Positions 14,261 through 45,604 of a DNA stretch of 64,000 nt are shown one piece after another. The notes under the pieces were generated by a model that had not been told where the DNA came from, did no database searches, and was given only the letters and a program-made list of their open reading frames with translations. Both the position numbers and the translations under genes were made by a program. Source of the stretch: an uncultured Methanosarcinales archaeon (GTDB lineage: Archaea > Nanobdellota > Nanobdellia > Woesearchaeales > CAYVYK01); the NCBI GenBank assembly GCA_964455675.1, contig CAYVYK010000001.1, positions 76,463 to 140,462 of the forward strand, given 5' to 3'. Every line of letters starts with the position of its first letter. The stretch's first letter is position 1.

Positions 14261-14267
14261 GAGAAAC

Positions 14268-27932: not shown

Positions 27933-30644
27933 CTATGGGCAATAATCGTTCTGAGAATCAGAAGCATAATGATAGCAGCTTCCTGGGCATGGCGTGCAGT
28001 CTGTCGCGTACGTGCATACGCTTTGCTGGGTCGTGGTAAAGGATCCTCCGGATGCTCCTGAGCACGCAGCTTTGCAGACATAGAGCGTGCCTCCTGGTGG
28101 TGGTGGAATAGCTCCTGTAGGACTGCCCGGGGCGTAGAAGTTGTACGACCCTGCTTGTTCGGTAAAGCTTGTGCATTTGAGTACCTCGTTGCAGTACACT
28201 CCTGGTCCCCCGCTATCTGACGGAGTATCGGGATTCCATGCCTCCCCAGCTCGTTCGTTGTAGAGTCCCTCTGCTGGATCCTGTCCAAAATAGCAGTGCC
28301 AGCATCGCTGGTCGTTTGGATCTGTTGGTCCTGGTACTTCTTCTACAAGATTATTTGCGCCAAAACCTCCATTGCAGATGTTGCCTCGGCCTCCTGAGCA
28401 CTTGCGTTCGAACTCGCGATAGACAAGGTCTGCTTTGTCTACATAGGCTGGTGGTAATGGGAATAGTGACGCTGGAAATCGTGCAGTATCCCGGAAATCA
28501 CTTGGGCATCCGACGATCTTGTTTGTTGCGTCAAGCCTGTAGCATATGGTTCCTGATCCCGCGTGCGTGTAACCGCTCGTGCAGCACGTATGGTCTGATT
28601 GGTAGGGATCATTGTCTTTCGGTGGAGGATAGAAGTCATCATCGTGCGTGAAGTCATGGTAGGGGTACTGTGCCGCATTGCGGAGGGGATCATTGTGAGG
28701 CAGGCATTCTTTGACGTCGATTTCAAAATCTTGCGCGGCGTAGTTCAGGGCGTTCGCATCATCTTCTACTTCGACATGGATGACATGGAGTCCAGTATTC
28801 GTTGGATACGCGCTAGTAATACCATTCAAAATGTCTGGTTTAGGGTCCCATGGCTGAGTACTGAGTATTCCATCCGGCCCTTCATAGAAGAACGCCGGAT
28901 CTTGGAGATCCCTGATGATATAGTTGAGTGTGCCCATGACGACAACATCAATTGTTGCTGTCGCATTGATGAGGAAAGGGTCCTCGACGGATGCAAAGTA
29001 ATCATTCACATACCCAGGTTCTCCTGGGCTGATCGGGGGATTTGCCTCTTCGCTTCCATGATCGATGGATCCGTACGTGTTGTTTGTCCAGAGCCGAATG
29101 AAGGGTTTATCATCCACAAGAATCCTGATAAGTTGATAGTCGAGAGCGCCTCCAGGGTCGATGGTAGTGAGTGTGATATTGTGGATACCAACATCGTTGC
29201 ACGCAAGTGTTGGTGAGAGAGCGCACCGGTAGCGTGCGAAATCTCCATCAAAGTCACATCCATCCTGGTAGGGTTCTGAATCCTCCCATATATTTGTCCC
29301 TCGGGGAGTACCGTACGTCCATTCGATGTCTGCGAGAGGATCGTCTCCACACGTTGGTCCAGAGAATGCATCATCCCACGTTGCCTTCCATCCTTCATAA
29401 GTATATGTAATGTTATCATAATCAAAATCATGCGCGGTTGGTGTGAAGTTAAGCTTGCTTCCTTCAAGGATATAGACATCGATCTTTTGGTCGTTATACT
29501 CAAGTGGCCGGAATGTGTAGTAATCGAGGGCAGGGTTTCTGTTTTCAATGATGAACTGGAAATAGTAAGGCTGTCCACCGACGGCATTGCGCTGCGAGAT
29601 GTCTGTGATTCTTACGATATGCTTGTCCTTGATTGATGATGGAGCCTGTTCTACCCGGAACGTGCCGCCGTAATATTCCTCCGAGATGCGTTCTCCTTCG
29701 CTGACGAGATTAAATGTGATATTTGTGATGTCTGCATCGATGAGGTCTCGCGCGAGTGCATACATAGGTAGGAGACGTGCGGGAACCGTAGACGTGTAGT
29801 TGTAGAACTTCACGGTTGTCGCAAGCGATCCGTTTTGCGAAAGCGTCACGGGGTATGTCATTTCGATTTGTGTGTCGTCCCAGGAGAACATTACATTTGC
29901 CGTCGATGCATTATGGAGTGCATTGACACCAAACGCAGTGTAGAAGCTGAAGTTCATGCAAGTTTGGACGTACTCAATGGTATAATTCTGGAGTTGCTCT
30001 TGAATGCTATAGGATAGGTTTCCGTACGTTGGGCAATTGATGCCGGTGTATGCTGATGATACTGCTGCGCTGCACATGCTCGGATAGAATATTTTTGCAT
30101 CGCTGTGCGCACGCAGTCCCGAGTGGACATACCTGAGTGCCTGGCTCCCCCATCGACGGTAAAATTTTGACCAATCATGAGTATAGTTATAGTAACAGTC
30201 TGCTCCGTAGAATGAGCTCGGCTGGTCTCCGGCAAGGCATGGATAGAATGGCGGCTGCTCGATTTCTCCATAGTTGGGAATGACATCCTCTGAGAGAGGA
30301 TTATAGATTTGGTACGCGGTATAGCTCGCATTTCCGCGAAGCATCGTTTTCACTCGGGGAATTGGAAAATCAATCATGTATGGCTCTCCGGTATCATTGA
30401 ATAGTATGCCCCCTCCATGTCCTACGAGGATTATTCCCTGCATAAAGCCCTCATCAAGGCAGGTTTGGAATTGTTTCCTATACTGGACGACGAGCTGCTG
30501 CTGATCTGAGAATACGGGGCGCTGTCTCTCGAATGCTTCTTTTGAGGCAGAACTCGCAAGATGCATAATGAACACAAAGCTTCCAGCTAGGACTGCCATG
30601 AGAAGGAAAAATATTGCGATCTGTGATGTTCTCACGAGTTGCAC
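27933..30644 (-). CDS. Large prepilin-like protein with Ig/PKD-like and Cys-rich C-terminal domains, about 903 aa
   Basis: Likely GTG start at 30644 or 30635, just after the upstream stop: (VQL)VRTS|QIAIFFLLMAVLAGSFVFIMHL; Ig-like NRNPAL...FTPTAHDFDYDNITYTY...HNITLTTID; Cys-rich tail. Confidence 0.75.
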   Translation of the reverse strand: MQLVRTSQIAIFFLLMAVLAGSFVFIMHLASSASKEAFERQRPVFSDQQQLVVQYRKQFQTCLDEGFMQGIILVGHGGGILFNDTGEPYMIDFPIPRVKTMLRGNASYTAYQIYNPLSEDVIPNYGEIEQPPFYPCLAGDQPSSFYGADCYYNYTHDWSKFYRRWGSQALRYVHSGLRAHSDAKIFYPSMCSAAVSSAYTGINCPTYGNLSYSIQEQLQNYTIEYVQTCMNFSFYTAFGVNALHNASTANVMFSWDDTQIEMTYPVTLSQNGSLATTVKFYNYTSTVPARLLPMYALARDLIDADITNITFNLVSEGERISEEYYGGTFRVEQAPSSIKDKHIVRITDISQRNAVGGQPYYFQFIIENRNPALDYYTFRPLEYNDQKIDVYILEGSKLNFTPTAHDFDYDNITYTYEGWKATWDDAFSGPTCGDDPLADIEWTYGTPRGTNIWEDSEPYQDGCDFDGDFARYRCALSPTLACNDVGIHNITLTTIDPGGALDYQLIRILVDDKPFIRLWTNNTYGSIDHGSEEANPPISPGEPGYVNDYFASVEDPFLINATATIDVVVMGTLNYIIRDLQDPAFFYEGPDGILSTQPWDPKPDILNGITSAYPTNTGLHVIHVEVEDDANALNYAAQDFEIDVKECLPHNDPLRNAAQYPYHDFTHDDDFYPPPKDNDPYQSDHTCCTSGYTHAGSGTICYRLDATNKIVGCPSDFRDTARFPASLFPLPPAYVDKADLVYREFERKCSGGRGNICNGGFGANNLVEEVPGPTDPNDQRCWHCYFGQDPAEGLYNERAGEAWNPDTPSDSGGPGVYCNEVLKCTSFTEQAGSYNFYAPGSPTGAIPPPPGGTLYVCKAACSGASGGSFTTTQQSVCTYATDCTPCPGSCYHYASDSQNDYCP

Positions 30645-30645
30645 C

Positions 30646-33600
30646 TTAGCGTAGTCCTGCCGTGAATTGTCTCCAGTATGGGAGGAAACCTCCGCCCTCC
30701 GACTCCGCATCCTGGATGGAGATGATATGGGTGCTCGGTGCGCCTCCGGTGCTGGATTGTTCGCAGACCGATGTGGTGTCCGTTCCTCGTATGATTTCCA
30801 GTGACGGACAGGGGTCTGCGTAAAAGTTAACATAATTAACGAAGAGGTAGCTCACGGGTAGTCCTCCCTCATTCATTGGCGCGCTCCAGAGATTATCTTC
30901 ATGTATTCCATATACGCGCCGGGTATCATGCGATGCGATGTAGAGCCTGCTGAAATCCTGTGTGTTCTCCACAAACGCGCTGTCGAGTCCTTCGAACTGC
31001 ATGAAATTGAGGTCAATGAATGTCATGACGATGGTGAGGAAGTCCTGGAGCGTCTGCTGGAGTGTAGAGATAGTATCTCCGGAATATCCGACATGGACCC
31101 TTTCGCGTGATGCGATGATCATCTGCTTCTCGGGATGTACCCACACGGTTCCATCGGAGCCGCATGGCAAGAATGCGTCGACATCATCGCTTATCGCAGC
31201 CTCGCACTGGTATCTGTTCTTTCCGACGAGCTTGAGCGGATTAAGTCCAACGGAGTTGAATGCTGCATTTGTCGATATTCCGACAACAACTTTTGTTCCA
31301 GTGGTGAGAACACACACTTTGTTTGCGCACGGTGCCTGGTTGCCAAGATTATCGCTGCAGATGGGATCATCATCAGTATCATCTATCCCGCCGAGCGGAG
31401 CGTATGTGATTGATTCTTCTCCTGCAAAGTAATCCGCGACCGTTCCTCCTTGCACAACGTACTCAACGAAGTTGAACGCGTTTTCATACGTGTCGCAGTA
31501 GAGTACATAGTCGTTGAGTCGTGACATGCTGCTGAGGAGTGCTCCGGCAACCTGCTTGGTTCGCGTGGTCCATTTTCCTTCATCGCAGTAATGATCCATG
31601 GTGTAGAATCCTGATTCCACGCAATTCGGGTCCTCGGTGGTTCCTTCTCCCTCAGGGTTAAGGAGGCAGTCTGTTTCTCTCTTGCAGAATCCGCTGAATT
31701 GTCCATTGTGTGTGTATTTTCTCTTTGAAAGCACCCATTCTCCATCGTAGCATCGGTAGTTCTCTTCTGGTGTTCCGCCATATCCTACGGCAGTGGGTGT
31801 TGAGGAAAAGTCTTCAAGGCAAGCAGTGCCATTCCAGCATTGAAGTTCTTGGCAGCATTCTGCGCGTTTGGTTTCCTCTTCCCCAGGTTCCCACGCAATA
31901 TAGCTGAGGTGGGTTCTTCCTTCTTCTGACTCATCAAACACCCATGTTTCGTTATAGCTGCAGAAAAGTTTGTGGTCATCGTCGGGGCCAAGACGGTCGC
32001 AGTAGGGATGGTCATGAATGACAAACGGATACATTGGAGCTCCGTTTGGCGCGTCAGGGTGCAGCATGAGCCAATCGTTTGACGCGCGAAGCCCTTCATC
32101 GTATGGCTTGTTGTGTTGCTCCTCCGGCTGGTATCGGGGATTGTCGCCCATATTGACGCCGTCGTTGTATGCGTCCTGATCATCCACTGCACACCCATGA
32201 ATACTACCATTGTATATAACTGATCCGGGGTGTGTCCGTGCCCGCCCAGTATAGTATTCGACAAGGTACTGGTTGTTTGGCTGGAAGACTCCTCGGAAAC
32301 ACGCGCCAATTGACTCTTCCTGGCCGATGTTTGCAGGGATTTGCCCCATATTGACGGCACCTGTTGTAGTAACGAGAGGTCCCTGTCCTGAGAATACATC
32401 ATACGGGGATTGCGCACCTCCAGTCGTGGTTGTTACGCCTCCTGTGGTTGTCACAGTAGTAACCATGTCTGGTGGATCGTTGTAACTTTCAAGATAATCG
32501 TCTGGTTCGCCGCAGCAGTAACTGCCTGTCCAAGTGAATCCGGCTGTAGTACCATCAGCGTTCTTTGCTGCTTCGCAGGTCTCTTCTCCAAAGGATTCGT
32601 CATCGAGGTCGCGCGTGAAATTATTGTTGGATGTGCAGTAGAATGTGTAATCATTTCCATCGATTGTTTGGACAACTGCATCGCCCGTTCGGTAGTGCTC
32701 TCCTCCTTTGCTGACAGAAGGGCATGTTCCAACACTGCAGCACGCTCCAATGATAAAGTTCCCGCCTGCTTCGTGGCAGAGGTATTGCATCTTGTTGAAT
32801 TCAAAGGGATTGTCTTTGTCTTTTCCCATGATCTTGCCTGTAAATGTTTTGACGGGTTTGCCGCTTGGTAAAGTTTTCTTCTCGGTTGAGCTTACTCTGA
32901 TGCGTGATTCAGAATTGCATCCAAGGACATATTCTCCTGCAAGCAGCACAGGATATCCAAGACAGCTCACGTTGAGGATGGCGCCATTATCCGCATATTC
33001 TGGTTCGTCTCCGAACTCCTCGATGTTTTCCCAGTTCTCGATGCCTCCTTCCCAGGAGAATTGTACTTTTCGTGCTCTTCCTCCTCCTTGTGCGACAACT
33101 TCTCTGCTTGCGCAGATTTTCCCTTCGCTCTCGATCACAAGTCCGCAGTCAGAGGTGTCATCACCGCAGCATTGGTTGGGCTGGTCATCCTCAGTAAGGA
33201 CGTCTTCATCACTCCAATCTCGTCGTGATTCTGTTCGAGGTTTAATGCGGTCGTTGTCATCGTCCCACTCGGGCGAGAACTTTCCGTTTGGACATCCAAG
33301 GCATGCGTTTTTTCCCATGTCAGGATCATCGTCCTCATCATCCCCGCAACAATCTCCGCCCATGGCATTGTCGCCGTCCTCATCCCATGTTGATGGAATC
33401 CCTTCATCCTCATCCGGGCTTCCGCATCCTTGCATCGTGCAATAGTATTCGCTGGTATCATATTCCACATCGAAGCTGAATGTTGTCTGGTCATCCTCAC
33501 GTGGTATGTCGCTGATCTGTAACGCCGTATCCACCCATGATGAGACACTGTGTTCTCCTTCGCACTTACAGAAATCTTGCTCGAGAAGATTGTATGTTGC

Positions 33601-34299
33601 TGAGTTGATGCCTTGGCTTGCTTCGATATCTGCTTCTTTTTCAATGACTTCGCGAACGGGAATATCGGTTGTTCCTCGTGTACTCTCGTCGTCAGATGCG
33701 CATCCGTAGCTGATATGGATCGTGTTCGGTCGTACATAATCGTTGTCAAGCCCCTCATTGCACATGGGTTCGAGTCCTTCTCCCATGAGTCCAATCATTT
33801 GTCCCTGCTGCATGGCCCCCTGCTGAAGGATGGGAAGAACCATTTGTGCGATTTGCGCGTATTTACCCCCTCCTCCGCCTCCCATTCCCCCGAGCATGCC
33901 AGTGAGCTGACTTGCTCCTTGCTGCATGCATGATGAGAGCATAGAGGCCATTGTCCCGATGAATTGGCAGGTTCTTCGCGTTGATGTCGCGTGTTCATCG
34001 TCGTATGGTACAAAGAGTGCTTGTATTCCTGCAGGTTCAGCATCGTCAGGCATGTCTTCCTGGTCTGCAGTGTCAGGGTCAGAGAGATCGACAAGTGTTG
34101 CGCCTGACGCGTCAGTGATGAGCAGTGTGAATCCGAGATTTGCCTGCGTCTCGAGCGCGGTTGACGTACCGTCCGAGGATGCGAGTGTGATGGGGAGTGG
34201 TGTGCTCGTAACCGCAAATGCACTGAAACTGGAGAGTAAGATAATGAGTGCCCAAAGAGAGATGCACACGTCCAGTTTTTTTATTGCGATTGATCTCAT
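30646..34299 (-). CDS. Large secreted Cys-patterned protein, paralog 1 of 3, 1217 aa
   Basis: Sec signal ending SAFA; motifs GGDCCG..DDPDMGxxAC, CCGDD, YCCGE, FCSYNETW, AECC, WTTRTK shared with 35751..39704 and 39751..43968. Confidence 0.85.
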   Translation of the reverse strand: MRSIAIKKLDVCISLWALIILLSSFSAFAVTSTPLPITLASSDGTSTALETQANLGFTLLITDASGATLVDLSDPDTADQEDMPDDAEPAGIQALFVPYDDEHATSTRRTCQFIGTMASMLSSCMQQGASQLTGMLGGMGGGGGGKYAQIAQMVLPILQQGAMQQGQMIGLMGEGLEPMCNEGLDNDYVRPNTIHISYGCASDDESTRGTTDIPVREVIEKEADIEASQGINSATYNLLEQDFCKCEGEHSVSSWVDTALQISDIPREDDQTTFSFDVEYDTSEYYCTMQGCGSPDEDEGIPSTWDEDGDNAMGGDCCGDDEDDDPDMGKNACLGCPNGKFSPEWDDDNDRIKPRTESRRDWSDEDVLTEDDQPNQCCGDDTSDCGLVIESEGKICASREVVAQGGGRARKVQFSWEGGIENWENIEEFGDEPEYADNGAILNVSCLGYPVLLAGEYVLGCNSESRIRVSSTEKKTLPSGKPVKTFTGKIMGKDKDNPFEFNKMQYLCHEAGGNFIIGACCSVGTCPSVSKGGEHYRTGDAVVQTIDGNDYTFYCTSNNNFTRDLDDESFGEETCEAAKNADGTTAGFTWTGSYCCGEPDDYLESYNDPPDMVTTVTTTGGVTTTTGGAQSPYDVFSGQGPLVTTTGAVNMGQIPANIGQEESIGACFRGVFQPNNQYLVEYYTGRARTHPGSVIYNGSIHGCAVDDQDAYNDGVNMGDNPRYQPEEQHNKPYDEGLRASNDWLMLHPDAPNGAPMYPFVIHDHPYCDRLGPDDDHKLFCSYNETWVFDESEEGRTHLSYIAWEPGEEETKRAECCQELQCWNGTACLEDFSSTPTAVGYGGTPEENYRCYDGEWVLSKRKYTHNGQFSGFCKRETDCLLNPEGEGTTEDPNCVESGFYTMDHYCDEGKWTTRTKQVAGALLSSMSRLNDYVLYCDTYENAFNFVEYVVQGGTVADYFAGEESITYAPLGGIDDTDDDPICSDNLGNQAPCANKVCVLTTGTKVVVGISTNAAFNSVGLNPLKLVGKNRYQCEAAISDDVDAFLPCGSDGTVWVHPEKQMIIASRERVHVGYSGDTISTLQQTLQDFLTIVMTFIDLNFMQFEGLDSAFVENTQDFSRLYIASHDTRRVYGIHEDNLWSAPMNEGGLPVSYLFVNYVNFYADPCPSLEIIRGTDTTSVCEQSSTGGAPSTHIISIQDAESEGGGFLPYWRQFTAGLR

Positions 34300-35748
34300 T
34301 TAGGAATTCTCCTCCGCGGATACTTCTGCGCCGTTCCATGCGACATCAGCGCGCATCGCTTTGACTTCCCATGTGAATCTCTGAGTGCTTCGAGGATTAT
34401 CAGAGTATACAATGAAGCTTCCGTCCTTGACTTGGATTCCAGTTTGACTTTGGATAGCGAGCCGGTCAAATCCGTCAATATTTGTGAGGATGACAGTTCT
34501 TCCTTCTTTCTGGGTAAGTGCTTCAAAATAATCTGGTAGTTTAATTTCTGTTCGACCGTTCAGGAGTTGTCCTTCACCGCGATAGTACACGCCAGCTTCA
34601 GGTCCTTCGAGCGATGAGTGTAAAAGCCTCATGTTCGGATCAAGCGGATGTGGTATGTCAAAGTTCTTTACAGTTGCAGAGAGTGTTCCTCGGATGATTG
34701 CATTACCGTGGATGTCAACCTTCTCTGTAGGGGCGTTTGTGCCTATACCCACGTTTCCATTATCAAGTAGATGGACACCCTCGCTAACACCAGCATCAAC
34801 ATCGCCATAAAGCGAGAGCCTTCCAAGGCTTTGTGGACCCATCAGGTACCCTTGCAATTCAACGTTGTGAGCGTAGATATCTTCGACTCGTATATTGCCG
34901 GCGACGTCAAGCGGAGCTGCTGGATCTAATCTACCAATGCCGATTCGGCCATTTTTGATGACAAGTCTATGCGCGTTCCCGTCGTATACACTAAACACGC
35001 CGGCTCCAAGTGGATCGCCTGACCCTGTTGAGTAAAGGGAATACTCTTTTCCACCGGTTCCCTGCTGCCATAAGTGTATCATGGCATTCCCAGTTCCTGG
35101 TGCTGTTGCTCGTATTCGCCCGGCAACATCAAGATTGACCGAAGGAGTTGATGTTCCAATTCCTACCATACCTGTAGGAGTTATCGTAAGGTATTCATCC
35201 CCCGACCCAAAGTAGGAACCCTTTCCTATCTTGAACGCGTCGCCAGCAGCATCCATACCAATGAACCATCGTACAGCCCCATCTGAAAATCGCAAAACGG
35301 TGCTCTGCCCCACGCTGTTATCGATATCAACAAGAGTGCCGGGCGCTCCGCTTGAGCTCTTGAATCGTCCAGTGGACGATGCAGTGGTAAGTACATCCAT
35401 GCGATAGTCCGGGCTTGCTGTCCCAATACCAACATCACCGGTGTCTTCAACGGAAAGTCGCGCATTCACCCCGCCCTGTTTGACGGCGAGCACTCCAGCA
35501 TCATCGGCAGTAATATCCCAAGTCATTGGTTTAGCGGGATTCTCAAGCCGAACGGTCGGGTTACCGAATGCCCCGCTGCTTCGTACATGGACGTGCTGCA
35601 ATGGATCATTTGTTCCAATGCCAACTTTTCCCTCGGGAGAAACCCAGTAGTTGTTCACATTCAGTTTGATGCCAAATACGAGTGGTACGTATACAAGCAT
35701 CACCAAAATCACCAATATGCTAAGGATATTATGTTTCATTATGGTCAC
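34300..35748 (-). CDS. Secreted fibre-like protein with G[NKD]VGIGT repeats and a KNFDIPHP...EGPEAGVYYRG C-terminal domain, 482 aa
   Basis: Signal peptide; five VGIGTxxP/IGIG repeats typical of trimeric tail-fibre-like shafts; C-terminal domain of the type that caps such fibres. Confidence 0.75.
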   Translation of the reverse strand: MTIMKHNILSILVILVMLVYVPLVFGIKLNVNNYWVSPEGKVGIGTNDPLQHVHVRSSGAFGNPTVRLENPAKPMTWDITADDAGVLAVKQGGVNARLSVEDTGDVGIGTASPDYRMDVLTTASSTGRFKSSSGAPGTLVDIDNSVGQSTVLRFSDGAVRWFIGMDAAGDAFKIGKGSYFGSGDEYLTITPTGMVGIGTSTPSVNLDVAGRIRATAPGTGNAMIHLWQQGTGGKEYSLYSTGSGDPLGAGVFSVYDGNAHRLVIKNGRIGIGRLDPAAPLDVAGNIRVEDIYAHNVELQGYLMGPQSLGRLSLYGDVDAGVSEGVHLLDNGNVGIGTNAPTEKVDIHGNAIIRGTLSATVKNFDIPHPLDPNMRLLHSSLEGPEAGVYYRGEGQLLNGRTEIKLPDYFEALTQKEGRTVILTNIDGFDRLAIQSQTGIQVKDGSFIVYSDNPRSTQRFTWEVKAMRADVAWNGAEVSAEENS

Positions 35749-35750
35749 CT

Positions 35751-38700
35751 CTAGGGGTTGATCTCTCCGATGAAGCAGAGTACGCCATCATTATTTATCG
35801 AGATGGCTGCATCAGTATCACTATAAACAATCAGGGCGGAATCAGCAGTGTCACACGTCGTTTCATGCCCTTCACATGATCCTTCTTCTGCACAGATGCT
35901 GCCGTCCGGTGCGATGTATGCGATAACTCGTGTTCCTGCATCATTGTATATCGTTAGTGAGTTGGCTGGAGCACTAGAGCAGCCTCCAATTCCTTCGATC
36001 ATGCATGCGGACGTGATAACGTTTCCGCTGTCGTAAAGCGCCACAATGTTGGTGTCAGCGTCGTCTTTGATGAGAACTGCTGTTTCATCAGGTGGCGCGT
36101 CAGGCCTCGGAACCGTGCTATCATCAAGTCGCAGCGAGCCTGTGAGCTGTTGCCAGAGCCCCGCAAGTCCATGGATGCTTCCGGATATTTCATTTCGGGA
36201 GACAATGTGATAATTTCCAGTGACGACATCGCGTGCGCAGTACGCTCCTCCTTGCATAGTCCCGAGTGTTTCATAGATGGTGTCGCAGATAGTGCTTCCT
36301 TCTTCTGGAAATCCAGAGAGTTCCATCATGGTGAATTCTAGGTCTGTTCCTCCTTCAATTTTTGTGGGCTCGTACCGTCGTTCCAGGCTTGCGTACATAT
36401 GGAGTGGTCCTTTGCTTGCCATGTAGTACATATCTCCTCCACGGCTTTGCTCGATGAATGCAATATCTTGCTCCCATGATGAGGGAAGCTCGCTCTCAAT
36501 GATGGATATGATCTTTTCAACAATTTGGTAGATGAAGTTAATAAGCCATTCTATCATGAGGCTGATGAGGTTTTGGTCCGTGACTTCTGGTATTGGCTCG
36601 TCATTTTCCCATGCAAAAATGATCGTATTCATGCGTGGATTGAGCCATACGCCTCGTTCGCTCTGCTCAGGCCAGGAGCATTCATGATAGCCCTCCTCAT
36701 TTTGCTCGATAACATCCTTGCATGCCATGAGGCTTTTGTAGTGGTTGACAGGATCAAGGAAGAGTCCGAGCGATCGTAGTATTCCAACATCGTCGCTTTC
36801 AGGGACGGTTTGGTTTCCCAGATTGGGACGGCTATTGAGAGCGATACCCACGTAGACCTCTTTTGGATTTGATCCTCGCCGAATAACGCATACTTTCTCG
36901 ACAGCTCGTAAGCCAGCGATGTGGGTATCATCTTCCAGATCATGCGCAGGTCTTAGGTATGAGTCTACCGTCGTGGACCACATGGGTAGTCCTCCGACGA
37001 CATAGTTGTACATGTTAACGGCATCTGAAAGATCGCTGCAGTACAGTGTATAATCGTGCGAGAAGAGTCCTCCTGCTTCTGTTTCTCCGATCACGCGCAG
37101 CATTGCCATGCCGAGGTCTCTGTTTCGACTTGCCCAGTCGCCGACACCGCTCGCGTTTACGCTGCAGATATAGTCCCCCCAAAAGAATCCGGGTTCCACA
37201 CACGTGAGCGGCGGTGATGGAAGCAGTGGATTTCCAAACAGGCACTGATCTTTCTGGGGGCAATACCCCCATGCGATATGGCGCGGAGCGTATTTTGGTT
37301 CTGCCTGCACCCATTCTGCGACTCCACCGCTCCCGATTCTGCATCGATATCCTGGTGCGGATCCTCGTGATGGTTCATTGGGATCATCAAAGTCTGAGGC
37401 AGGCACACATTCCCCGCTGCTGCCGGCCCCTCCGTCCCAGCACGCCTCAGCTGGGCAGCATTCTGCCTGAAGTCTTCCAGGTGGCATATCCCATTCTGTG
37501 TAACCAAGATGAAGTTGGTCTGTTGCATCTGCTCCAACGTCAGCAAGCGGTCTCCATACTTCAGCGTAGGAGCAGAACCGGTCCGTATGTTTTTCGCAGT
37601 ATGCGTTGTCATCGATGACCCAGGATGAGAGGAAGGACATGGTGTTTTTTCCGCCATGGGCGTCGGGATTGTCAGGGAATCCATAAGGGAATAACGGTGA
37701 TGGAGCGAGGAGGAAGTCGTTTGATGCTGGATGGTTGGGATCGACAGTCATGATCGATGATGGTGGGTTGCCGTTGTATGGTTTTCCTCGAAGTTCCGAG
37801 CTCCTCCATCCTGGTGTATATTCGACGCCGCTATTGTCAGGAACGAGAGTTCCGGTGGTGTCGATGGCGCATCCTTCAAACGTTCCTGTGGGCGAGATGA
37901 TTACTTCATAAAACAATGTCTGGATGCCGCTTCCGTCGTGATCAAACCGAAGGAACTGTGGTGTTCCCGTGCTTCGTTGCTGGTACGTACTCTTGAAGCA
38001 CGCTCCTGATGTATCGCCGTTGTAGCTCTCGTATCCTATGTTGCGTGAATCTTCTTGTTCGCCGCAGCACTGCCCGCCTGCGTAATGGAGTCCTGCGAGT
38101 TGACAGTCTGATTGGCTAGTGTCAAGATCCGTGCTGAATTGGTGGTTGCCCTTGCAGTAGTACCAGAGTGGCTCTGCCGCGCCATCATTTGCTATCGCGT
38201 GCCCTCCCGAAGTAAGATGATCTGCATGTGCGCCAGGAGTTTTGCAGAACGCAGGGGAGTCGCCGCAGCATTCTGCGATATGAGTTTTATCGCTGGCCGC
38301 GCGATTGGTATCATACGAGCAGAGCATACCATTGCCGCCGACGATGTTAGGATTCGGTGTGTCAACACCATACTTCTTGAACGCTCTGGTTTCAGCGCCG
38401 CTGTTGATCGTAAATAGCGGAATCGGGGGCGCTGGAGTAAATAAGGATCCTGTTCCGCAATAGACCGCTTGAGGATAGCTGTCCGCGACGGTGATGCTCG
38501 TTCCGGCATTCGCGAGGCAGTTTGGCTTCCATACGTCGCCAATGCCGGTGGTGGTTTTCCATCCCCATGCTGGCGTGTCTGCACAAATTTTTGTCCCGTC
38601 TTGAAATACGTTGCCGCAGTCAAGGAATGCGCTGTCAATGGGTGTGGTGACATCGTCGCCGCAGCACGCTCCGCCCGCGGAGTCCATGACAGGGGAGTAT

Positions 38701-39704
38701 GACCAATATCTTTTTTGGACAAGGTTTGGTGGCGCTCCTGTTGGTTGATTGTCTTCTTTGAAGCAGTACGCGCATGCGTTCTCTCCCATGTCAGGATCAT
38801 CGTTGGCGTCCGGGCCGCAGCAGTTTCCTCCTCGGGATGCGACTCCCCAGTTGTCCCAGGTGTTGGGTTTTGATGGATCAATGCCTGAACAACCGAGTGC
38901 GTTGCAGATGAGTTTGCTGTGATCCCAGTTCATGTCAAGGACAAAGTGGATGGACCTTGGTTCTCCTGCTGGATAGATTCCTGGAGCGCCGGCAACAGTG
39001 ACCGTGATGTCATGGACGCCTTTATTTTGGCAGATCGCGCTCGGGATGAGTCGGTAGAGCATCGTGCTTTCTGCTCGTGAATGAGTGTCTTCTCCAGGTG
39101 GAGGACTTGCTTGCGAGAGATATCGTTCAGTTCCAAAGCATGCGGGATTTGTGGGAGGCATTGTGGATACCCTGCTGAAGAGATTGCTTCTGACGTGGTC
39201 ACGGTTCGCGCATATGACGCCGAGGGCAAGATTGCAGTTGTCATAGAAGAGTGTTGGGTTGCCCGCATGAAAATAGGAACACATGTCCGTCCATCCTGCA
39301 GGGGTACTTGCGGGTAGTGAGTCAATTGTTCCCGAGAAGAGGTTTGGAACAATGCTACCATCCGGAAGCGTTGTTTGGGATGTAATCGTAAGTGTGTGGT
39401 CTTGGGGCGCCGGGTCCTGTCCGCTGACGAGATCTTCAGACCTGAAATAAATGTAGAGGTATGGTGAAACGCCTGATGATGAGTCTCCAAACTCAGTGTA
39501 CACCCCAGCCCATCCCGCTGCGTCTGCTGCACCGCCAATATCTGCGTATGTGTTCCCAGCGGATGGATTTAGGCCGTATTGGTAATTGACAACTTTTACT
39601 TCATACTGTGAACCAGGAGCGCATCCTTGGAGAAACATGAGAAAGAAGACTAGTAGTACACCTATGAGACTTACAAGTACCCTAATCCCTCTTCTATTTC
39701 GCAT
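35751..39704 (-). CDS. Large lipoprotein, Cys-patterned protein, paralog 2 of 3, 1317 aa, with an extra C-terminal domain
   Basis: Lipobox-like MFLQG|C; GGNCCGPDANDDPDMGENAC, CCGDD, CCGE, FCSYAEVW, AECC; extra tail of about 110 aa with repeated (I/V)xND.G..(V/I)A.I..DG..C units. Confidence 0.85.
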   Translation of the reverse strand: MRNRRGIRVLVSLIGVLLVFFLMFLQGCAPGSQYEVKVVNYQYGLNPSAGNTYADIGGAADAAGWAGVYTEFGDSSSGVSPYLYIYFRSEDLVSGQDPAPQDHTLTITSQTTLPDGSIVPNLFSGTIDSLPASTPAGWTDMCSYFHAGNPTLFYDNCNLALGVICANRDHVRSNLFSRVSTMPPTNPACFGTERYLSQASPPPGEDTHSRAESTMLYRLIPSAICQNKGVHDITVTVAGAPGIYPAGEPRSIHFVLDMNWDHSKLICNALGCSGIDPSKPNTWDNWGVASRGGNCCGPDANDDPDMGENACAYCFKEDNQPTGAPPNLVQKRYWSYSPVMDSAGGACCGDDVTTPIDSAFLDCGNVFQDGTKICADTPAWGWKTTTGIGDVWKPNCLANAGTSITVADSYPQAVYCGTGSLFTPAPPIPLFTINSGAETRAFKKYGVDTPNPNIVGGNGMLCSYDTNRAASDKTHIAECCGDSPAFCKTPGAHADHLTSGGHAIANDGAAEPLWYYCKGNHQFSTDLDTSQSDCQLAGLHYAGGQCCGEQEDSRNIGYESYNGDTSGACFKSTYQQRSTGTPQFLRFDHDGSGIQTLFYEVIISPTGTFEGCAIDTTGTLVPDNSGVEYTPGWRSSELRGKPYNGNPPSSIMTVDPNHPASNDFLLAPSPLFPYGFPDNPDAHGGKNTMSFLSSWVIDDNAYCEKHTDRFCSYAEVWRPLADVGADATDQLHLGYTEWDMPPGRLQAECCPAEACWDGGAGSSGECVPASDFDDPNEPSRGSAPGYRCRIGSGGVAEWVQAEPKYAPRHIAWGYCPQKDQCLFGNPLLPSPPLTCVEPGFFWGDYICSVNASGVGDWASRNRDLGMAMLRVIGETEAGGLFSHDYTLYCSDLSDAVNMYNYVVGGLPMWSTTVDSYLRPAHDLEDDTHIAGLRAVEKVCVIRRGSNPKEVYVGIALNSRPNLGNQTVPESDDVGILRSLGLFLDPVNHYKSLMACKDVIEQNEEGYHECSWPEQSERGVWLNPRMNTIIFAWENDEPIPEVTDQNLISLMIEWLINFIYQIVEKIISIIESELPSSWEQDIAFIEQSRGGDMYYMASKGPLHMYASLERRYEPTKIEGGTDLEFTMMELSGFPEEGSTICDTIYETLGTMQGGAYCARDVVTGNYHIVSRNEISGSIHGLAGLWQQLTGSLRLDDSTVPRPDAPPDETAVLIKDDADTNIVALYDSGNVITSACMIEGIGGCSSAPANSLTIYNDAGTRVIAYIAPDGSICAEEGSCEGHETTCDTADSALIVYSDTDAAISINNDGVLCFIGEINP

Positions 39705-39730
39705 GTATGCATAAACCCCAGGTTTCGAGG

Positions 39731-39745
39731 TTTATAAAGGTTTTG
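39731..39745 (-). promoter_or_regulatory. BRE/TATA promoter of the 1317-aa gene
   Basis: The minus strand reads CAAAACCTTTATAAA, ending 27 nt upstream of the ATG at 39704. Confidence 0.6.
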
Positions 39746-39750
39746 AGAAT

Positions 39751-42700
39751 TTACTGTACGCGTAGCTCCTGAGTGAGTTGCTTCCAGTCCGAGAAGATTC
39801 CTACATCCGGATTTGTCTCGGCTCCACTATTTTCTTCTGAGTAAATGAGATAGTAATCGCCAAATGATGTGCAATCGTAGTTTGCACCGCTGCTGGCTAG
39901 CCACTTGTCTGTTGTTCCGCACACATCACTCACGCGAGAATCTGCTTTGTTTGAGTAGTTGAGGTAGAGGTAGTGTTTGCGCTGCCCTGGTGCTCCTTCG
40001 CCGAGATGTTGTGCAGGCTCGGGGTAATAGGTTTGTATCATTCCTTCGATAGTGCGCATATCCTCTCGGATGAGATACACCGTATCGAACACTTTGTTCT
40101 GTTCGATCATTTGGAGGGAGTCCGCGATAAATGGTGTTGATGTTCCCATCACGAGCTGGAATATTCTTGCGAAGAACTTGAGGATATGGCTGATGACGGT
40201 TTGGTACCATGATCCTTGGAATGAGAATGAGCCTGTACTGTAGACGATCGCCCGCTGGTCAACATTGAGTGAAAGATATGCCTGATTGTTGCTTCTGCAG
40301 TCGAGGAATTGCTGATCTCCTGGTGCTTCTCCTGCTGCGACTTGGTTCTGGCAGTCGGTACTGCGTCCATTAAAGAGACCGAGCATCTTGAGTGATCCTG
40401 GTGTTCCGCTTTCAAAATTCTTGTTGATTGTTGTTCCAATGATTGGCGCGTGGTTTCCGTATTCAAGCACGCAGAACTTGTTCGTGCATGGCACTTTTGG
40501 CGTCGGTGTTCCTGCTCCGTCCACGAACCGATAGCTTCCGCTCGTTTCTTTGTATCCAAACTGGAGTGGACAGATTGTGCTTGTATATCCAGGAACAAGT
40601 CCATCGCCTCCAACGGGGATACTGAGGATTTCGTAATCATAATAGGTCATGATGTCGCTGTAGGAATCACAGATCAAGCTAAATTCAGTCTGCGCGGTGC
40701 TGTGATCATTCACATACGTAAGCATGGAATCCGCAAGGACTTTGGTTCGTGTTGTCCAGTTTGCAAATGGCGCTCCTGTTTTGTACTGGCAGTAATAGTC
40801 TCCGACATATGTGCCAGCTGGCACGCAAATAGGATTGGCTTCATTTCCTGCTTCGCCGCTCGGATTCCAAAGGCACATCGTGTTGTCATGGCAGTATCCT
40901 GTTTTTCTCCTGTCAGGAGTGTATCGCACCTTAGCTTGGAGCCACTGTCCGTCGTAACAGCGCCATCCATCATCATCGCCTCCGGCTGCAGAATCCGTCT
41001 CAAGGTTATAGAAGAATTGGTTTTCACAGATGGTTCCATTCCAGCATTGTGTAGGCTTGCAGCATTCCGCACGCTGCACCCATGATCCTGTTGGTTGTGG
41101 TGTCCATCGAATATAGCTTAAGTGGCTTCGCTCATCAGAGTGTGGATCAACTGCCCACGTTTCGTTGTAGCTGCAAAAGACGTCTCTGTCAGGAAGTTCG
41201 AGGTACCTGCAGTACACAGAATCGTTAATCGCAACGGTATCGAGCACAACTTTGTTTGGCGCATCCGGATATCCCATGAGCCAATCGTTTGAGTAGCTTG
41301 GGATTGTCTTTCGCATTCCTTCCTCATACGGCCTGTGTGGATCTGCATAGGTTGGCTCAAATTCTGGATTGTCAGCCATATCAACGCCATCGTTAACATC
41401 ATCATCTTGATCTACTGCACATCCTTGCATTACTCCGTTGTGAACGACGACTCCTTTGTGGTAAACCCATGATCCTGAGGTGGATTCAACGAGAAGCCTT
41501 CCGTTCAACTGCCGGTATCCTCCAAAGCACGCGCCAAGTGTTGGTGTAGTACTTCCGCCTCCGCCAGGTGGCGTGCCTCCGCCGCTTCCACCACCCTCAG
41601 GTGGTTCGCCGTCACCCGGTGAATAGTCGGGTGGTGGGCCGCTAGGTCCTCCGCCTGATGGAGGCTCTCCTGGAGTCTGGCCTCCGCTTGCCTGTGGAGG
41701 ATCATTGTATACTTCAAATGGATCGTCATGTTCTCCGCAGCAATAGTTGCCTGTCCACACAATCCAGTCGCCATTCCATGATCCTGCGACGAGTTTCTGC
41801 GCCGCGTCACAGTCTGTTTGGAGTTTGTTATCAAGGTCCATGCTGAATTCTGTTTCTGCTCCTTCCCCTGTGCAGTAGAAGTAGTGGCCGTCTGTTCCAG
41901 TCTTTCCCATTTGCACAGCCACTTGCCCTTGGGATAACCGTTCGCCTGCGGCGTCATCTCCATCATCGGATCGTGGAGTTCCGGTTCCCGTGCATTCTGA
42001 GATAATCATCCGTTCGGGTGACTCCTCTTCTCCATCATCTCCGATCACAGCGGCTCGTCGATAGCAGAGGTATCCATGATAAGGTGTGTTGTAGGTGATC
42101 TGGAATGGATTTGGAACTGGATCATCATAGAGTGATATTCCGCTTCCTGGTGGCCATACGGGATTTCCAATGTCAGCCACGACGTTTGTTCCGAAGAACG
42201 ATCCGCGGAATGTGTGCGACCTATTGCCTCCTCTCTTGTACCAGAGCGGATCATTTGAGCTTGCTGGTGGCTTGCCGAGTGTGTCTATCTGGAAGTTGCT
42301 GCCCATGTAGCAGCCTATGACACGATCTCCCGCAAGCAGGACTTCGTTGTCCTGGCATCCGAGATTCTTTATTGCGCCGACAAGCATGGGCTCATCATTT
42401 TCATCATCATAACCTACCCAGGCGTAGTTTGTCGCTGTTGTCTTCATGCACACGCTGCTGTTGTCAGTGCTCACTGCTCCGCAGTCGTACGAGTCGTCTC
42501 CGCAGCACCGGTTCGACGTTCGAATCATGAGCGGTGTGTCGGCTGGTGTTTCTCTGCAGAGGAATTTCCACTGATCTCCGAACCTGCTGATATAGGCGGC
42601 ATCGTTGCAGATTGTGTACATAGGATTGTCAAAGACGTGCTCAACGCCGGTGTCACTCCACATGCGTTTGGTGCCTTCAAATTGATATCCATCATATGTA

Positions 42701-43968
42701 GGTTGGTGTTCTCCTGATAGGCAGTGCGTGCACGCGAGTGGTCCCATGTCTGGATCGTCCCAGAAGTTATTGATCGTGCTGACGATTTGCGCGTTGTCAT
42801 CGTTCGTCTGAAGCTCATTGATGAATTGGATGAAGGACTCCGCAATTTCTGATTTATCGACGGTGATATATTCCTCATACTGATCCATGCTTTCGTCAAT
42901 CTGGTCGAGGAGTTCTTGAAGCCCTGATCCGCCGATGCCTCCCTTTATTCTGTCGACACCGCAGCATTTTCCTCCTAGAGCATAGTCTGCGTTCTCGTCC
43001 CACACAGGGATTATTGTTCCAATGTCCTCTGCAGCATCCTCGCCGATTTGCTGGGCGATGACGTCCGTTCTTCCCGCTCTGCAGAAATACTCGTTGTGGT
43101 CCCGGTTGATGTAGAGTTCTCGAGTAATGGCGCTCTCCTGGCTAGTGTGTTGATCGCCCGTTTCCGTGTCACCATCATAGTTGACCGCTGTCTTGATCCC
43201 AGAATCCCATGTGCTCATGATGTGTTTGCCTTTCGTCCCAAGCACGGCTGGGTGGAGGAGGTTCAGAAGGTACATGTTTGTGTTGTACTTTCCTGGCGCC
43301 CCGCTCTGCAGTATTGCGATGATGCTGCACATCAGATTTGCGGAGAACTCATTCTGGATTGGTCCTTCCCTTGAGAGCATTGTGGTCCCGCCCTCAGAGA
43401 AATCGCTTCCTTCATAGGCGAACCCACAGTTATTCTTGAATGCAAAATTCCCGTCGGTAATTTCAAGGATGTTGTGGTCAAAATTAAGTTCCGCCGGGAG
43501 CTGTATCTCTCCTGTGGGCATGTAGGAGATAGAAGCATAAAACACAGGGTATGCGATGTCAAGGTAATAGCGGAATGGGTAATTGGTCAGGTTTGGCTCA
43601 TAATGGCTTCCGATGTAGAGGAGATTGACGTCTGATTCGGCTCCCTCGTTTGCGGGGATGTACCATGATCGGTAGAACAGACGGTAGCTTTCGGGATTAT
43701 CCGGATCGGCCACTGCCCAATCCCGAAAGTCAGTTCCTTCGCTGAATGTGCTTCCGGTTCGGAAGTCTTCAACAGGATTCATCTGGTTGTCAATGATATC
43801 AACGACAAATCCTCCGTTGTCGATATACCCAGGGAGCTCAGTGACTGTGAGGAGTGATTCCCATTCTTCTCCGCATCCACTCGCGAATAGGACCAAGAGA
43901 ATAAGTGCACAAGAGATCTCTTTGTGCTGATTGATGCGTCTTACTACTTCACCTATCCTGTTGTACAT
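39751..43968 (-). CDS. Large lipoprotein, Cys-patterned protein, paralog 3 of 3, 1405 aa
   Basis: Lipobox-like LFASG|C; GGKCCG...DDPDMGPLAC, CCGDD, YCCGE, FCSYNETW, AECC, WTTRTK; Pro/Gly low-complexity insert. Confidence 0.85.
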   Translation of the reverse strand: MYNRIGEVVRRINQHKEISCALILLVLFASGCGEEWESLLTVTELPGYIDNGGFVVDIIDNQMNPVEDFRTGSTFSEGTDFRDWAVADPDNPESYRLFYRSWYIPANEGAESDVNLLYIGSHYEPNLTNYPFRYYLDIAYPVFYASISYMPTGEIQLPAELNFDHNILEITDGNFAFKNNCGFAYEGSDFSEGGTTMLSREGPIQNEFSANLMCSIIAILQSGAPGKYNTNMYLLNLLHPAVLGTKGKHIMSTWDSGIKTAVNYDGDTETGDQHTSQESAITRELYINRDHNEYFCRAGRTDVIAQQIGEDAAEDIGTIIPVWDENADYALGGKCCGVDRIKGGIGGSGLQELLDQIDESMDQYEEYITVDKSEIAESFIQFINELQTNDDNAQIVSTINNFWDDPDMGPLACTHCLSGEHQPTYDGYQFEGTKRMWSDTGVEHVFDNPMYTICNDAAYISRFGDQWKFLCRETPADTPLMIRTSNRCCGDDSYDCGAVSTDNSSVCMKTTATNYAWVGYDDENDEPMLVGAIKNLGCQDNEVLLAGDRVIGCYMGSNFQIDTLGKPPASSNDPLWYKRGGNRSHTFRGSFFGTNVVADIGNPVWPPGSGISLYDDPVPNPFQITYNTPYHGYLCYRRAAVIGDDGEEESPERMIISECTGTGTPRSDDGDDAAGERLSQGQVAVQMGKTGTDGHYFYCTGEGAETEFSMDLDNKLQTDCDAAQKLVAGSWNGDWIVWTGNYCCGEHDDPFEVYNDPPQASGGQTPGEPPSGGGPSGPPPDYSPGDGEPPEGGGSGGGTPPGGGGSTTPTLGACFGGYRQLNGRLLVESTSGSWVYHKGVVVHNGVMQGCAVDQDDDVNDGVDMADNPEFEPTYADPHRPYEEGMRKTIPSYSNDWLMGYPDAPNKVVLDTVAINDSVYCRYLELPDRDVFCSYNETWAVDPHSDERSHLSYIRWTPQPTGSWVQRAECCKPTQCWNGTICENQFFYNLETDSAAGGDDDGWRCYDGQWLQAKVRYTPDRRKTGYCHDNTMCLWNPSGEAGNEANPICVPAGTYVGDYYCQYKTGAPFANWTTRTKVLADSMLTYVNDHSTAQTEFSLICDSYSDIMTYYDYEILSIPVGGDGLVPGYTSTICPLQFGYKETSGSYRFVDGAGTPTPKVPCTNKFCVLEYGNHAPIIGTTINKNFESGTPGSLKMLGLFNGRSTDCQNQVAAGEAPGDQQFLDCRSNNQAYLSLNVDQRAIVYSTGSFSFQGSWYQTVISHILKFFARIFQLVMGTSTPFIADSLQMIEQNKVFDTVYLIREDMRTIEGMIQTYYPEPAQHLGEGAPGQRKHYLYLNYSNKADSRVSDVCGTTDKWLASSGANYDCTSFGDYYLIYSEENSGAETNPDVGIFSDWKQLTQELRVQ

Positions 43969-44020: not shown

Positions 44021-44032
44021 GATTTATAAATC
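44021..44032 (-). promoter_or_regulatory. TATA box (palindromic GATTTATAAATC) upstream of the 1405-aa gene
   Basis: TTTATAAA at 44023-44030, about 55 nt upstream of the ATG. Confidence 0.5.
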
Positions 44033-44051: not shown

Positions 44052-44273
44052 CTACGAGAAACGAGGAGTGGGGGTATATGTCTTCGCGTCAATCGTGATA
44101 GTACTGTCAGGTGGCGGCGTCGGTGTTGCCTCGCATCCGCATTCGGCTGGTGGTTCTCCTCCAAAAGACATGGTGAACGTTGCGGCTAGGAGTATCATCC
44201 CAAGAACTGCAACCGCGATGATGACTGCTATGATCCACGACGCGATAGCTCGCTTGCCAAGATGCATATGCAC
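44052..44273 (-). CDS. Small prepilin-like protein with a Pro/Thr-rich tail, about 71-73 aa
   Basis: MHLGKRA|IASWIIAVIIAVAVLGMILLAATF followed by CGC and PTPPP. Confidence 0.6.
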   Translation of the reverse strand: MHMHLGKRAIASWIIAVIIAVAVLGMILLAATFTMSFGGEPPAECGCEATPTPPPDSTITIDAKTYTPTPRFS

Positions 44274-44292: not shown

Positions 44293-44859
44293 TTATCGTT
44301 TGTGCAGAAATGTACTGAATGACGCGATGTCGTGTGGGCTTCGCATTCCATACGGCGTCTGCGCGAATGTCACAACAGAATAGTCCACTCTGAAGCGTCT
44401 GCAGAGAAGGAGGTTTTGTTTCATGCGGCCAAGGATGAGCGCTCGGTGCTGCTCCTTGGCTTCGATAATGTGCGAGAGATTTAGTAGGTAAGAGTGATGG
44501 TGCTGCTGCATGAGGGCGCAGAGGACGGGGTCAAGCCCGCTGTATCGATGATGAAATCCGTCTTTGGGAAAGATTTTTTCGGCGCCGTAGAAATGGACAT
44601 GCTCATGCTGCTCGAGCATCGTTCGTAAGTTCTGGTCCGCTTGGGTGATGCGAACTGCTCCGGGTGGTAGTTGTTTTCCTAGGTCAACTGCCTTGCAGAG
44701 GAATCCGAGCGTGAGCTTGAGCGTACCTGTGGGCAGGATATGCTCTCGTGCTTCTTTCGCTCCCTGGTAGGGATACACGAGGGTAAGTTCGTGCAATCCA
44801 AGGTGTTCTGCCATATGGATGAATTGTTGCTCATTCTTGTTCGGAAATACGTAATCCAT
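44293..44859 (-). CDS. rnp3: Ribonuclease P protein component 3 (Rpp30-like)
   Basis: FIHMAEHLG...SGLDPVLCALM...LILGRMKQNLLLCRRFRVDYSVVTFAQTPYGMRSPHDI matches the Rpp30 C-terminal pattern. Confidence 0.75.
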   Translation of the reverse strand: MDYVFPNKNEQQFIHMAEHLGLHELTLVYPYQGAKEAREHILPTGTLKLTLGFLCKAVDLGKQLPPGAVRITQADQNLRTMLEQHEHVHFYGAEKIFPKDGFHHRYSGLDPVLCALMQQHHHSYLLNLSHIIEAKEQHRALILGRMKQNLLLCRRFRVDYSVVTFAQTPYGMRSPHDIASFSTFLHKR

Positions 44860-45493: not shown

Positions 45494-45604
45494 AGCGGGG
45501 AGAGGGACTCGAACCCCCGAATAAACGCTCTCAGCTAGTCATCGCTTGGTAGCTCCTCAGAGCCGTTCTGCAGGCGCTCGCCTTAGCCGCTTGGCTATCC
45601 CCGC
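45494..45604 (-). tRNA. tRNA-Cys(GCA) with a 38-nt intron at about 37/38 (45530..45567)
   Basis: Acceptor stem GCGGGGA/TCCCCGC, discriminator U73, anticodon stem AGCGC/GCGTT, loop CT-GCA-G..A, T-loop TTCGAGT; 73 nt after intron removal. Confidence 0.85.

Follow-up and report, generated by a model that had tools for sequence, protein, structure and literature searches.

Three large proteins, p1217, p1317, and p1405, are encoded close together on the minus strand of a 64-kb stretch of contig CAYVYK010000001.1 (the whole stretch is called the window below), where they occupy a paralog block at positions 30646-43968. They are probably exported scaffold proteins stabilized by many cysteines, through disulfides or metal, and, as far as the sequence searches reach, they represent a large, unnamed family that is specific to Woesearchaeota/Nanoarchaeota. 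The chances appear about even that this family is the adhesin-like surface component of a pilin-like apparatus, working in the manner of PilY1 but without kinship to it. The strongest clue to function is the operon that the family genes share with proteins carrying class-III-signal-like N-termini and with giant TSP3/CarboxypepD_reg proteins, a context that had escaped a preliminary description of this DNA. Because a family gene always lies in one conserved operon with pilin-like proteins, a role in an attachment apparatus suggests itself; docking, adhesion, and association with a pilus are what we infer from gene order and sequence.

A scan for related loci returned two loci in genomes and six in metagenomes. 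The two genome loci, found among the GTDB species genomes, belong to a Woesearchaeota metagenome-assembled genome (MAG) from groundwater and to a Nanoarchaeota single-amplified genome (SAG). Eight loci were compared, the window and seven from different samples (Table 1). In all eight, one to three family genes are followed by a gene for a protein with a class-III-signal-like N-terminus; in every locus other than the window an orthologue of p966, about 410-780 aa long where complete, stands directly after the family gene. A giant TSP3/CarboxypepD_reg protein comes next wherever the contig continues, and several pilin-like genes follow where the flank reaches further. Reciprocal BLAST pairs each neighbour in the other loci with an orthologue in the window, and p279, p416, p185, and p193 of the window each have a conserved orthologue elsewhere. 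RNase P p30 lies upstream in six of the seven loci with upstream flank (the window, L001, L005, L006, L009, and L011). Two more loci, found independently via a p416-like protein, have this 3' half too and contain as many as about 10 class-III-like genes. In the window the minus-strand genes read as a single compact operon, most intergenic gaps being -8 to 46 nt, in the order RNase P p30, a 71-aa open reading frame (ORF), a TATA-like element, p1405, p1317, p482, p1217, p966, p3041, p1480, p279, p416, p185, and p193. Stop and start share a 4-nt overlap in L001, L005, and L010; in the window they are separated by 2-11 nt. Probably, the family genes are co-transcribed with their neighbours and translationally coupled to them.

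Table 1. Syntenic loci compared with the window.
Locus	Source	Upstream	Family genes	Downstream proteins
L001/L004	Woesearchaeota MAG (groundwater)	RNase P p30	2	471, 1545 (TSP3), 169, 355, 168, 190, 91, 249 aa
L005	Nanoarchaeota SAG	RNase P p30	2	473, 1579, 178, 368 aa
L006/L007		RNase P p30	1	782 aa, giant CarboxypepD_reg protein
L008		radical-SAM genes, no p30	1	688, 1870, 179, 356, 166 aa
L009		RNase P p30	1	412, 1568 aa
L010		too little flank	1	class-III protein cut by contig end
L011		RNase P p30	1, split in two	449, 1696, 166, 430, 297, 163 aa

Proteins encoded directly after the family gene, and those of the smaller genes further downstream, begin with a short basic stretch, followed by [KR][GAS], usually a glutamine, and about 20 hydrophobic residues, as in MKKS/QVTMFIIM, KKGQ/ISGQVFIYIL, MKKKG/FLASELFIYIL, and KKG/DVTIQFNWILVL. 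These N-termini fit the archaeal class III (prepilin-like) signal pattern. Together, the [KR][GAS]/Q-hydrophobic pattern and the logic of the operon suggest that the neighbours are pilin-like proteins.

An exhaustive HMMER search with a profile hidden Markov model (HMM) of the core, the analysis that the preliminary description had called for, covered 1.84 billion cluster representatives (clusters at 50% identity). It matched 826 representatives at E <= 1e-3, 710 at E <= 1e-10, and 426 at E <= 1e-30. Among 20 representatives that were looked up, all named members are annotated as "hypothetical protein" and stem from MAGs or SAGs of Candidatus Woesearchaeota or (in GTDB-style naming) Nanoarchaeota, and the taxonomic range given here is that of these few named MAGs and SAGs. 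A word-indexed homologue search returned only the query proteins and P0002 with the paralog alignment, and nothing with an 11-sequence alignment of the C-terminal module; the exhaustive profile search was needed because word-index pre-selection misses this divergent family, to which low-complexity words may contribute. Within the window, the family HMM (E <= 10) and BLASTP (E <= 1e-3) find the three paralogs alone. The core matches no characterized family, in agreement with the earlier statement that no named family could be recognized: the three paralogs have no match to Pfam-A 2025 at E <= 0.1, to PHROGs v4 at E <= 0.01, or to NCBIfam 20.0 beyond a 16-bit chance match (P0002 and P0007 likewise match nothing), and profiles built from 3 or 43 sequences retrieve no PDB chain at E <= 1.

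The three window proteins are true paralogs. By BLASTP, p1217 shares 30% identity with p1405 over 977 aa (E = 1.6e-97) and 25% with p1317 over 1122 aa (E = 2.6e-50), and p1317 and p1405 are 23% identical over 646 aa (E = 2.1e-23); p1217 and p1405 are mutually closest within the window. As the paralogs are just 23-30% identical, their synonymous sites are saturated. Cysteine makes up 3.9% of p1217, 3.9% of p1317, and 3.1% of p1405. Most of the anatomy given in the preliminary description is borne out. Its series of shared motifs is found complete (18 of 18) and in identical order in all three proteins by a regular-expression walk and a MAFFT alignment. Homology sets in at about aa 210-230, and the segments before cannot be aligned among the paralogs, consistent with the unrelated N-termini and the one Sec signal and two lipoboxes that had been noted. 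The N-terminus of p1217 looks Sec type (..SAFA/VT, no lipobox) and leads into a region of about 245 aa rich in Gly, Gln, and Met, while a lipobox ([LVI][ASTG][GA]C at the end of the signal) is assigned by pattern alone in p1317 (FLQGC) and p1405 (FASGC). Probably, p1317 and p1405 are lipid-anchored, and p1217 is released or held by a partner after Sec cleavage. The gap between CCGE/YND and GACF, described as a Thr/Gly tract, a Pro/Gly tract, and almost nothing, measures 56 aa in p1217, 55 aa in p1405, and 3 aa in p1317. The acidic insert of p1405 between GGxCCG and DDPDMG, put at about 60 aa, has 64 aa, and the extra C-terminal part of p1317 is a 124-aa extension with three short internal repeats (xLxIYxDxxxxxIAxI) and no BLAST relative, thus an orphan sequence. 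The limits of the block are exact as well, although its description as three neighbouring paralogs overlooked a fourth, unrelated gene, p482, between p1317 and p1217.

What finds no support is the proposal that the paralogs swap cassettes at matched sites. The site between CCGE/YND and GACF is better explained as a variable linker or loop hot spot of the whole family, with a median of 14 aa, at least 30 aa in 35 of 150 representatives, and at least 50 aa in 20 of 150; its composition ranges from Thr/Ser/Gly/Pro-rich to acidic, and insertion hot spots exist at other family sites too. The linkers of p1217 and p1405 are of near-equal length, both start with PP, and they have a central P.Y[DS] in common. 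On the simplest reading they would be one inherited homologous linker whose composition has drifted, with no cassette exchange. A slippage-prone contingency locus in the linkers was considered and rejected, as the linker DNA of p1217 and p1405 contains no tandem repeats.

Tandem paralogs are also found elsewhere: L001 (Woesearchaeota) and L005 (the Nanoarchaeota SAG) each have two copies at conserved positions. The first genes of these two loci are mutual best matches (974-997 bits), as are the second genes (about 686 bits). In the window, p1317 has its closest relative, P0006, in another metagenome (36% identity, 353 bits, versus 149-185 bits to its own neighbours), and p1405 has a closer partial relative, P0020. 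Since cross-genome pairs are closer than paralogs within one genome, the duplicates are old and have been maintained. P0006 (contig JGI 3300075153) carries the lipobox WTTGC and adjoins a gene with an Lgt (PF01790) domain, which hints at bacterial-type lipoproteins in these DPANN archaea.

Across the family, a variable N-terminal half is joined to a C-terminal module of about 650 aa that is conserved. A Sec or lipobox N-terminus and 3-7% Cys are found in nearly all full-length representatives; a clear lipobox (...LGCGGGG) is present in about 7 of 120 representatives with an N-terminal hydrophobic signal region. Profile coverage lies mainly in the C-terminal two thirds and peaks from the [FY]YC..DLD..CCGE segment to the C-terminus (about aa 520-1217 of p1217), and the upstream CCGDD region is also found in about one third of the top 150 representatives. 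These conserved two thirds seem to be structurally constrained. The motif W-x(n)-CCG[DE]D occurs 3-4 times in each window protein and seven times in P0002, so that its number in the N-terminal core is variable. Sixty columns are conserved in at least 85% of 150 representatives; 24 of these are Cys and the rest mostly Trp, Gly, Asn, and Asp, and they include the acidic cluster CCGExDDxxExYND, the invariant Arg of W[TA][TS]R, and the terminal W..LT.KLR. This extreme C-terminus (aa 1209-1217 of p1217) is near-invariant, its last Arg being conserved in 100% of 121 members, and some relatives have further domains beyond KLR. A conserved amphipathic helix lies near aa 1076-1094 of p1217, with low-confidence loops on either side; in 63% of 146 members, its best 18-aa window ranks within the top 1% of that member for hydrophobic moment, compared with 6% when random segments of the same length are taken. 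Relatives contain accessory domains, namely Laminin_G_3 (N-terminal in P0017, inside the core in P0085), CBM_4_9, PPC, or Hint. The cysteines may be disulfide-bonded or bind metal. The view of a diversified set of proteins on a conserved scaffold is thus upheld in part: extracellular location, a conserved Cys-rich scaffold, and variable parts are supported, and host recognition and disulfides are what we infer from them.

Structure prediction gives a similar picture of the conserved part. AlphaFold models of p1317 aa 500-1193 (multiple sequence alignment of 44 sequences; predicted local distance difference test score [pLDDT] 72.5, predicted template modelling score [pTM] 0.67, 432 residues with pLDDT >=70) and of p1217 aa 30-1217 (43 sequences; pLDDT 66.1, pTM 0.56) both consist of small beta-rich Cys-knit subdomains and, after them, a pair of alpha/beta domains. 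For p1217, pLDDT is <50 in aa 30-275 and in the Thr/Gly linker, both of which are predicted to be disordered, and the core from aa 275 is mostly at 70-93. In Foldseek searches, the check on fold novelty proposed earlier, neither model has a match at E <= 1e-3 among 350,542 PDB chains or in BFVD. As far as these two collections reach, the modelled fold would be without a known match. T3SS-chaperone/YbjN-like folds appeared for the last alpha/beta domain of both models at E 0.02-0.2, which is non-significant, and were not used.

PilY1/PilC proteins are large exported non-pilins whose signal peptide is of the ordinary kind; their N-terminal half varies, and their C-terminal domain is conserved. 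They are encoded in one operon with minor pilins, e.g., fimU-pilVWXY1E, are defined by a C-terminal beta-propeller, and have a Pfam family of their own. The proteins of the present family resemble them in being large (about 1,000-1,500 aa), exported, and N-terminally variable but C-terminally conserved. The several distinct proteins that share their operon may be pilin-like, judging by their N-termini. However, they lack the PilY1/PilC domain, with no match in Pfam (E <= 0.1), PDB sequences, or Foldseek (E <= 1e-3). Their C-terminal module is a Cys-rich beta/alpha-beta assembly rather than a beta-propeller, they come from an archaeon, and any association with a filament is putative. PilY1/PilC is therefore the closest analogue in logic, and the family is not a member of it. 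Large adhesin-like proteins, some of them PilY-like, occur in archaeal type IV filament (TFF) loci and have a proposed role in adhesion or recognition (bioRxiv 10.64898/2026.04.22.720090). The present family is similar in comprising large secreted archaeal proteins beside class III signal proteins, but is without the Ig-fold-rich, beta-helical, or remote PilY-homologous domains of those adhesins. Also missing from its loci are the defining genes of TFF clusters, those for the ATPase and the platform protein. In contrast to archaeal type IV pilins, the family proteins carry Sec or lipobox signals instead of a class III signal. Another DPANN archaeon, Nanohaloarchaeum antarcticus, has the SPEARE proteins, which are giant, lineage-specific surface proteins with protease, adhesion, and restriction-endonuclease domains and a proposed role in host contact. 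By description only, the family is comparable as a set of large, lineage-specific surface proteins, but its members are much smaller and have no detected enzyme domains. The TSP3_bac/CarboxypepD_reg giants p1480 and p3041, which are operon neighbours and also Cys-rich and exported, are not homologous to the family (BLASTP E <= 1e-3; family HMM E <= 10).

If the family is an adhesin-like component, the conserved C-terminal module would dock the protein onto a surface apparatus built of the co-transcribed class-III-signal (pilin-like) and giant TSP3/CarboxypepD_reg proteins. Contact with a host cell or substrate would be made by the variable N-terminal half, into which relatives have lectin/CBM domains inserted, and the linker would be a flexible, mucin-like joint of variable length between core and C-terminal module. 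Tandem copies would be old duplicates that diversify the binding component. A bolder version, which we consider possible but rather doubtful, is that the family forms the host-recognition head of a new attachment organelle of Woesearchaeota/Nanoarchaeota, a new disulfide-rich fold docked on about 5-10 pilin-like proteins and giant Ca-binding proteins, with copy number and N-terminal variation setting the host range. DPANN archaea are host-dependent, and the Woesearchaeota, thought to be host-attached, are among the most widespread uncultivated ones. To our knowledge, no attachment protein is known for them. The family would be a concrete candidate, with at least 826 sequence clusters and an operon kept across many genomes. 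It offers targets for metaproteomics, electron cryotomography labelling, and structure determination as well as a candidate new Pfam domain, and its variable parts are a possible marker of host range.

Several observations weigh against an adhesin-like component of a pilin-like apparatus. The strict FlaFind regular expression is passed by a low number of the class-III-like neighbours, 7 of 26, and a relaxed form by 22 of 26. Curated pilin and class III models (Pfam, NCBIfam), applied to N-termini and full proteins, give no meaningful match to the neighbours. The 64-kb window and all 20-kb loci contain no gene for a PilB-type ATPase or a PilC-type platform protein, and T2SSE/T2SSF domains are absent from window ORFs of at least 180 aa and from the called genes of L001, L006, L008, L015, and L016; the sole signal related to type IV filaments is a faint Arc_PepC match in L006. 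By either pattern, p1217, p1317, and p1405 have no class III signal. They were among 11 other window proteins used as controls, ten of which fail both patterns; the remaining one, p1000, fits the relaxed form and thus looks class-III-like itself. No recognizable binding domain is found in the three window proteins, and the confidence of the AlphaFold models is moderate overall (pLDDT 66-72).

Other explanations must be considered. The one given most weight, though we think it unlikely, is that these are envelope or S-layer-type structural proteins that form or anchor the wall, in which case the operon would be an envelope operon. A lineage-wide, exported family at a conserved site beside housekeeping genes (RNase P p30, replication factor A, 5S rRNA, tRNA) would be in line with this, the amphipathic helix of the conserved C-terminal module could lie on the membrane, and some proteins encoded in type IV filament loci are noted to resemble S-layer proteins (bioRxiv 10.64898/2026.04.22.720090). 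However, hypervariable N-terminal halves, variable copy number, and lectin/CBM inserts, along with the high Cys content, fit adhesins better than a lattice, and Foldseek finds no similarity to solved S-layer structures. Ranked next, and similarly improbable, is the suggestion of the preliminary description that the three paralogs assemble together into one obligatory hetero-oligomeric surface complex. The genes are tightly packed in one operon, and the tandem copies, each with a closer relative in another genome than in its own, have been retained as old maintained duplicates; co-occurring paralogs in L001 and L005 likewise agree with it. Yet five of the eight loci (L006, L008, L009, L010, and L011) have a single family gene at the same operon position, so a complex of different paralogs is no general requirement.

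A secreted enzyme or toxin, with the C-terminal module acting as a lytic or pore-forming effector and the amphipathic helix entering the host membrane, seems improbable to a higher degree. The position of the conserved helix between low-confidence loops, the host dependence of DPANN archaea, and a nearby VanY/M15 peptidase in one locus (L016) might be cited for it. The conserved columns of the 150 representatives, however, contain no His/Ser catalytic-type signature; outside the structural Cys, Trp, and Gly positions, no catalytic pattern of His, Ser, Glu, or Cys is conserved. No enzyme or toxin family or fold is matched in Pfam, NCBIfam, PDB sequences, or by Foldseek on PDB and BFVD, and the polarity is the reverse of polymorphic toxins, in that the N-terminus varies and the C-terminal 650 aa or so are conserved. 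Essentially excluded is a provirus or integrated element that encodes receptor-binding proteins as its cargo. Its one sign is p482, a phage-tail-fibre-like protein encoded between two paralogs, but p482 is absent from all other syntenic loci and the operon occupies the same chromosomal site by RNase P p30 in six genomes. Moreover, the IMG/VR viral contigs contain no relative of the family, BFVD contains no matching fold, and G+C is flat, at about 0.50, across the region. The adhesin-like surface component thus remains the favoured reading.

Table 2. Features of the window (positions within the 64-kb stretch).
Feature	Position	Strand	Description
p1405, family member 1	39751-43968	-	1405-aa ORF; lipobox-like LFASGC; C-terminal module ending ..WKQLTQELRVQ; top match of the family profile
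acidic insert of p1405	42760-42951	-	between GGKCCG and DDPDMG
Pro/Gly-rich linker of p1405	41536-41700	-	aa 757-811; same site as the p1217 linker
p1317, family member 2	35751-39704	-	1317-aa ORF; lipobox-like FLQGC; almost no linker
C-terminal extension of p1317	35754-36125	-	
p1217, family member 3	30646-34299	-	1217-aa ORF; Sec-type signal; conserved core aa 275-1217
Thr/Gly-rich linker of p1217	32308-32475	-	aa 609-664; CCGE/YND-to-GACF gap; predicted disordered
amphipathic helix of p1217	about 31018-31074		
p482	34300-35748	-	482 aa; unrelated to the paralogs
p966	27933-30644	-	class-III-signal-like N-terminus M(QLV)RTS/QIAIFFLLMAVLAG; true length about 900 aa
p3041	18707-27832	-	giant, Cys-rich (5.2%), CarboxypepD_reg domains; counterparts in L006, L015
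p1480	14268-18710	-	giant, bacterial TSP3 repeats; same-position orthologues in L001, L005, L008, L009, L011
p279, p416, p185, p193	10963-14263	-	four consecutive genes, class-III-signal-like N-termini: MRKS/QIIGQTFVYL (p279), KRG/VFQEQFNWIFVLV (p416), KA/QMKMMETFAVMVV (p185), KRS/QMEIMGIAII (p193)
TATA-like element TTTATAAAT	44022-44030		archaeal type, read from sequence; about 55 nt upstream of the p1405 ATG
71-aa ORF	44052-44267	-	MHLGKRA/IASWIIAVIIAVAVLGMILLA..; unlisted, between RNase P p30 and p1405
RNase P p30-like gene	44293-44859	-	34% identity to the PF01876 protein of L001
371-aa protein	680-1795	+	class-III-signal-like N-terminus RKG/IVGWMISVFWVF
1000-aa protein	2514-5516	-	class-III-signal-like N-terminus MRRG/EIGFTFSGILTILLG
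341-aa protein	5657-6682	-	class-III-signal-like N-terminus MKKRG/EITTSEIGKAILSLVIL
605-aa protein	8563-10380	+	Cys-rich; repeated CGDGxC...E....C..DC units; lipobox-like LVLPAC; no Pfam match
tRNA	45494-45604	-	111 nt
894-aa fusion protein	49069-51753	+	UDP-glucose/GDP-mannose dehydrogenase and UTP-glucose-1-phosphate uridylyltransferase (UDPGP) domain

Among the operon neighbours, p966 was listed as an ORF of 966 aa (27933-30833), 188 nt of which overlap the 3' end of p1217. Its homology with orthologues of the MKKSQVTMFIIM type points to a later start, probably the GTG at 30635 or 30644, which is 2-11 nt past the p1217 stop. The C-terminal half of p966 is an extra Cys-rich extension that is absent from orthologues of about 470 aa. 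The 71-aa ORF upstream of p1405 may encode a further small pilin-like protein, judging by its N-terminus. Protein p482 is Cys-free and Gly-rich, contains VGIGT..P...LDV.G repeats, and has a signal or anchor at its N-terminus. Its matches are to PHROG tail-fibre families and, by tblastn, to phage distal tail-fibre/endosialidase-chaperone genes. Since the 371-, 1000-, and 341-aa proteins are also class-III-like, the island of pilin-like genes reaches well past the operon. The 371-aa protein has a weak homologue in L015 (E = 5.6e-7, 24% over 134 aa).

In L006 (3346-9942) and L007, an A24-like peptidase, the source of the faint Arc_PepC match, is encoded between RNase P p30 and the family gene. 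The same insertion contains a His-Xaa-Ser-type cluster made up of HxsD, three radical-SAM genes, and a Hint/intein-like protein. In the window, a scan for bacterial sigma-70 promoters and terminators gave counts equal to the shuffle expectation, these models being bacterial and irrelevant to an archaeon; the DNA is most likely that of a DPANN archaeon. The cluster is flanked by the RNase P p30 homologue, replication factor A, and sugar-nucleotide enzymes, and Rfam finds a 5S rRNA in the window. The 111-nt tRNA was called by Rfam and missed by ARAGORN, and would be compatible with an intron-containing archaeal tRNA.

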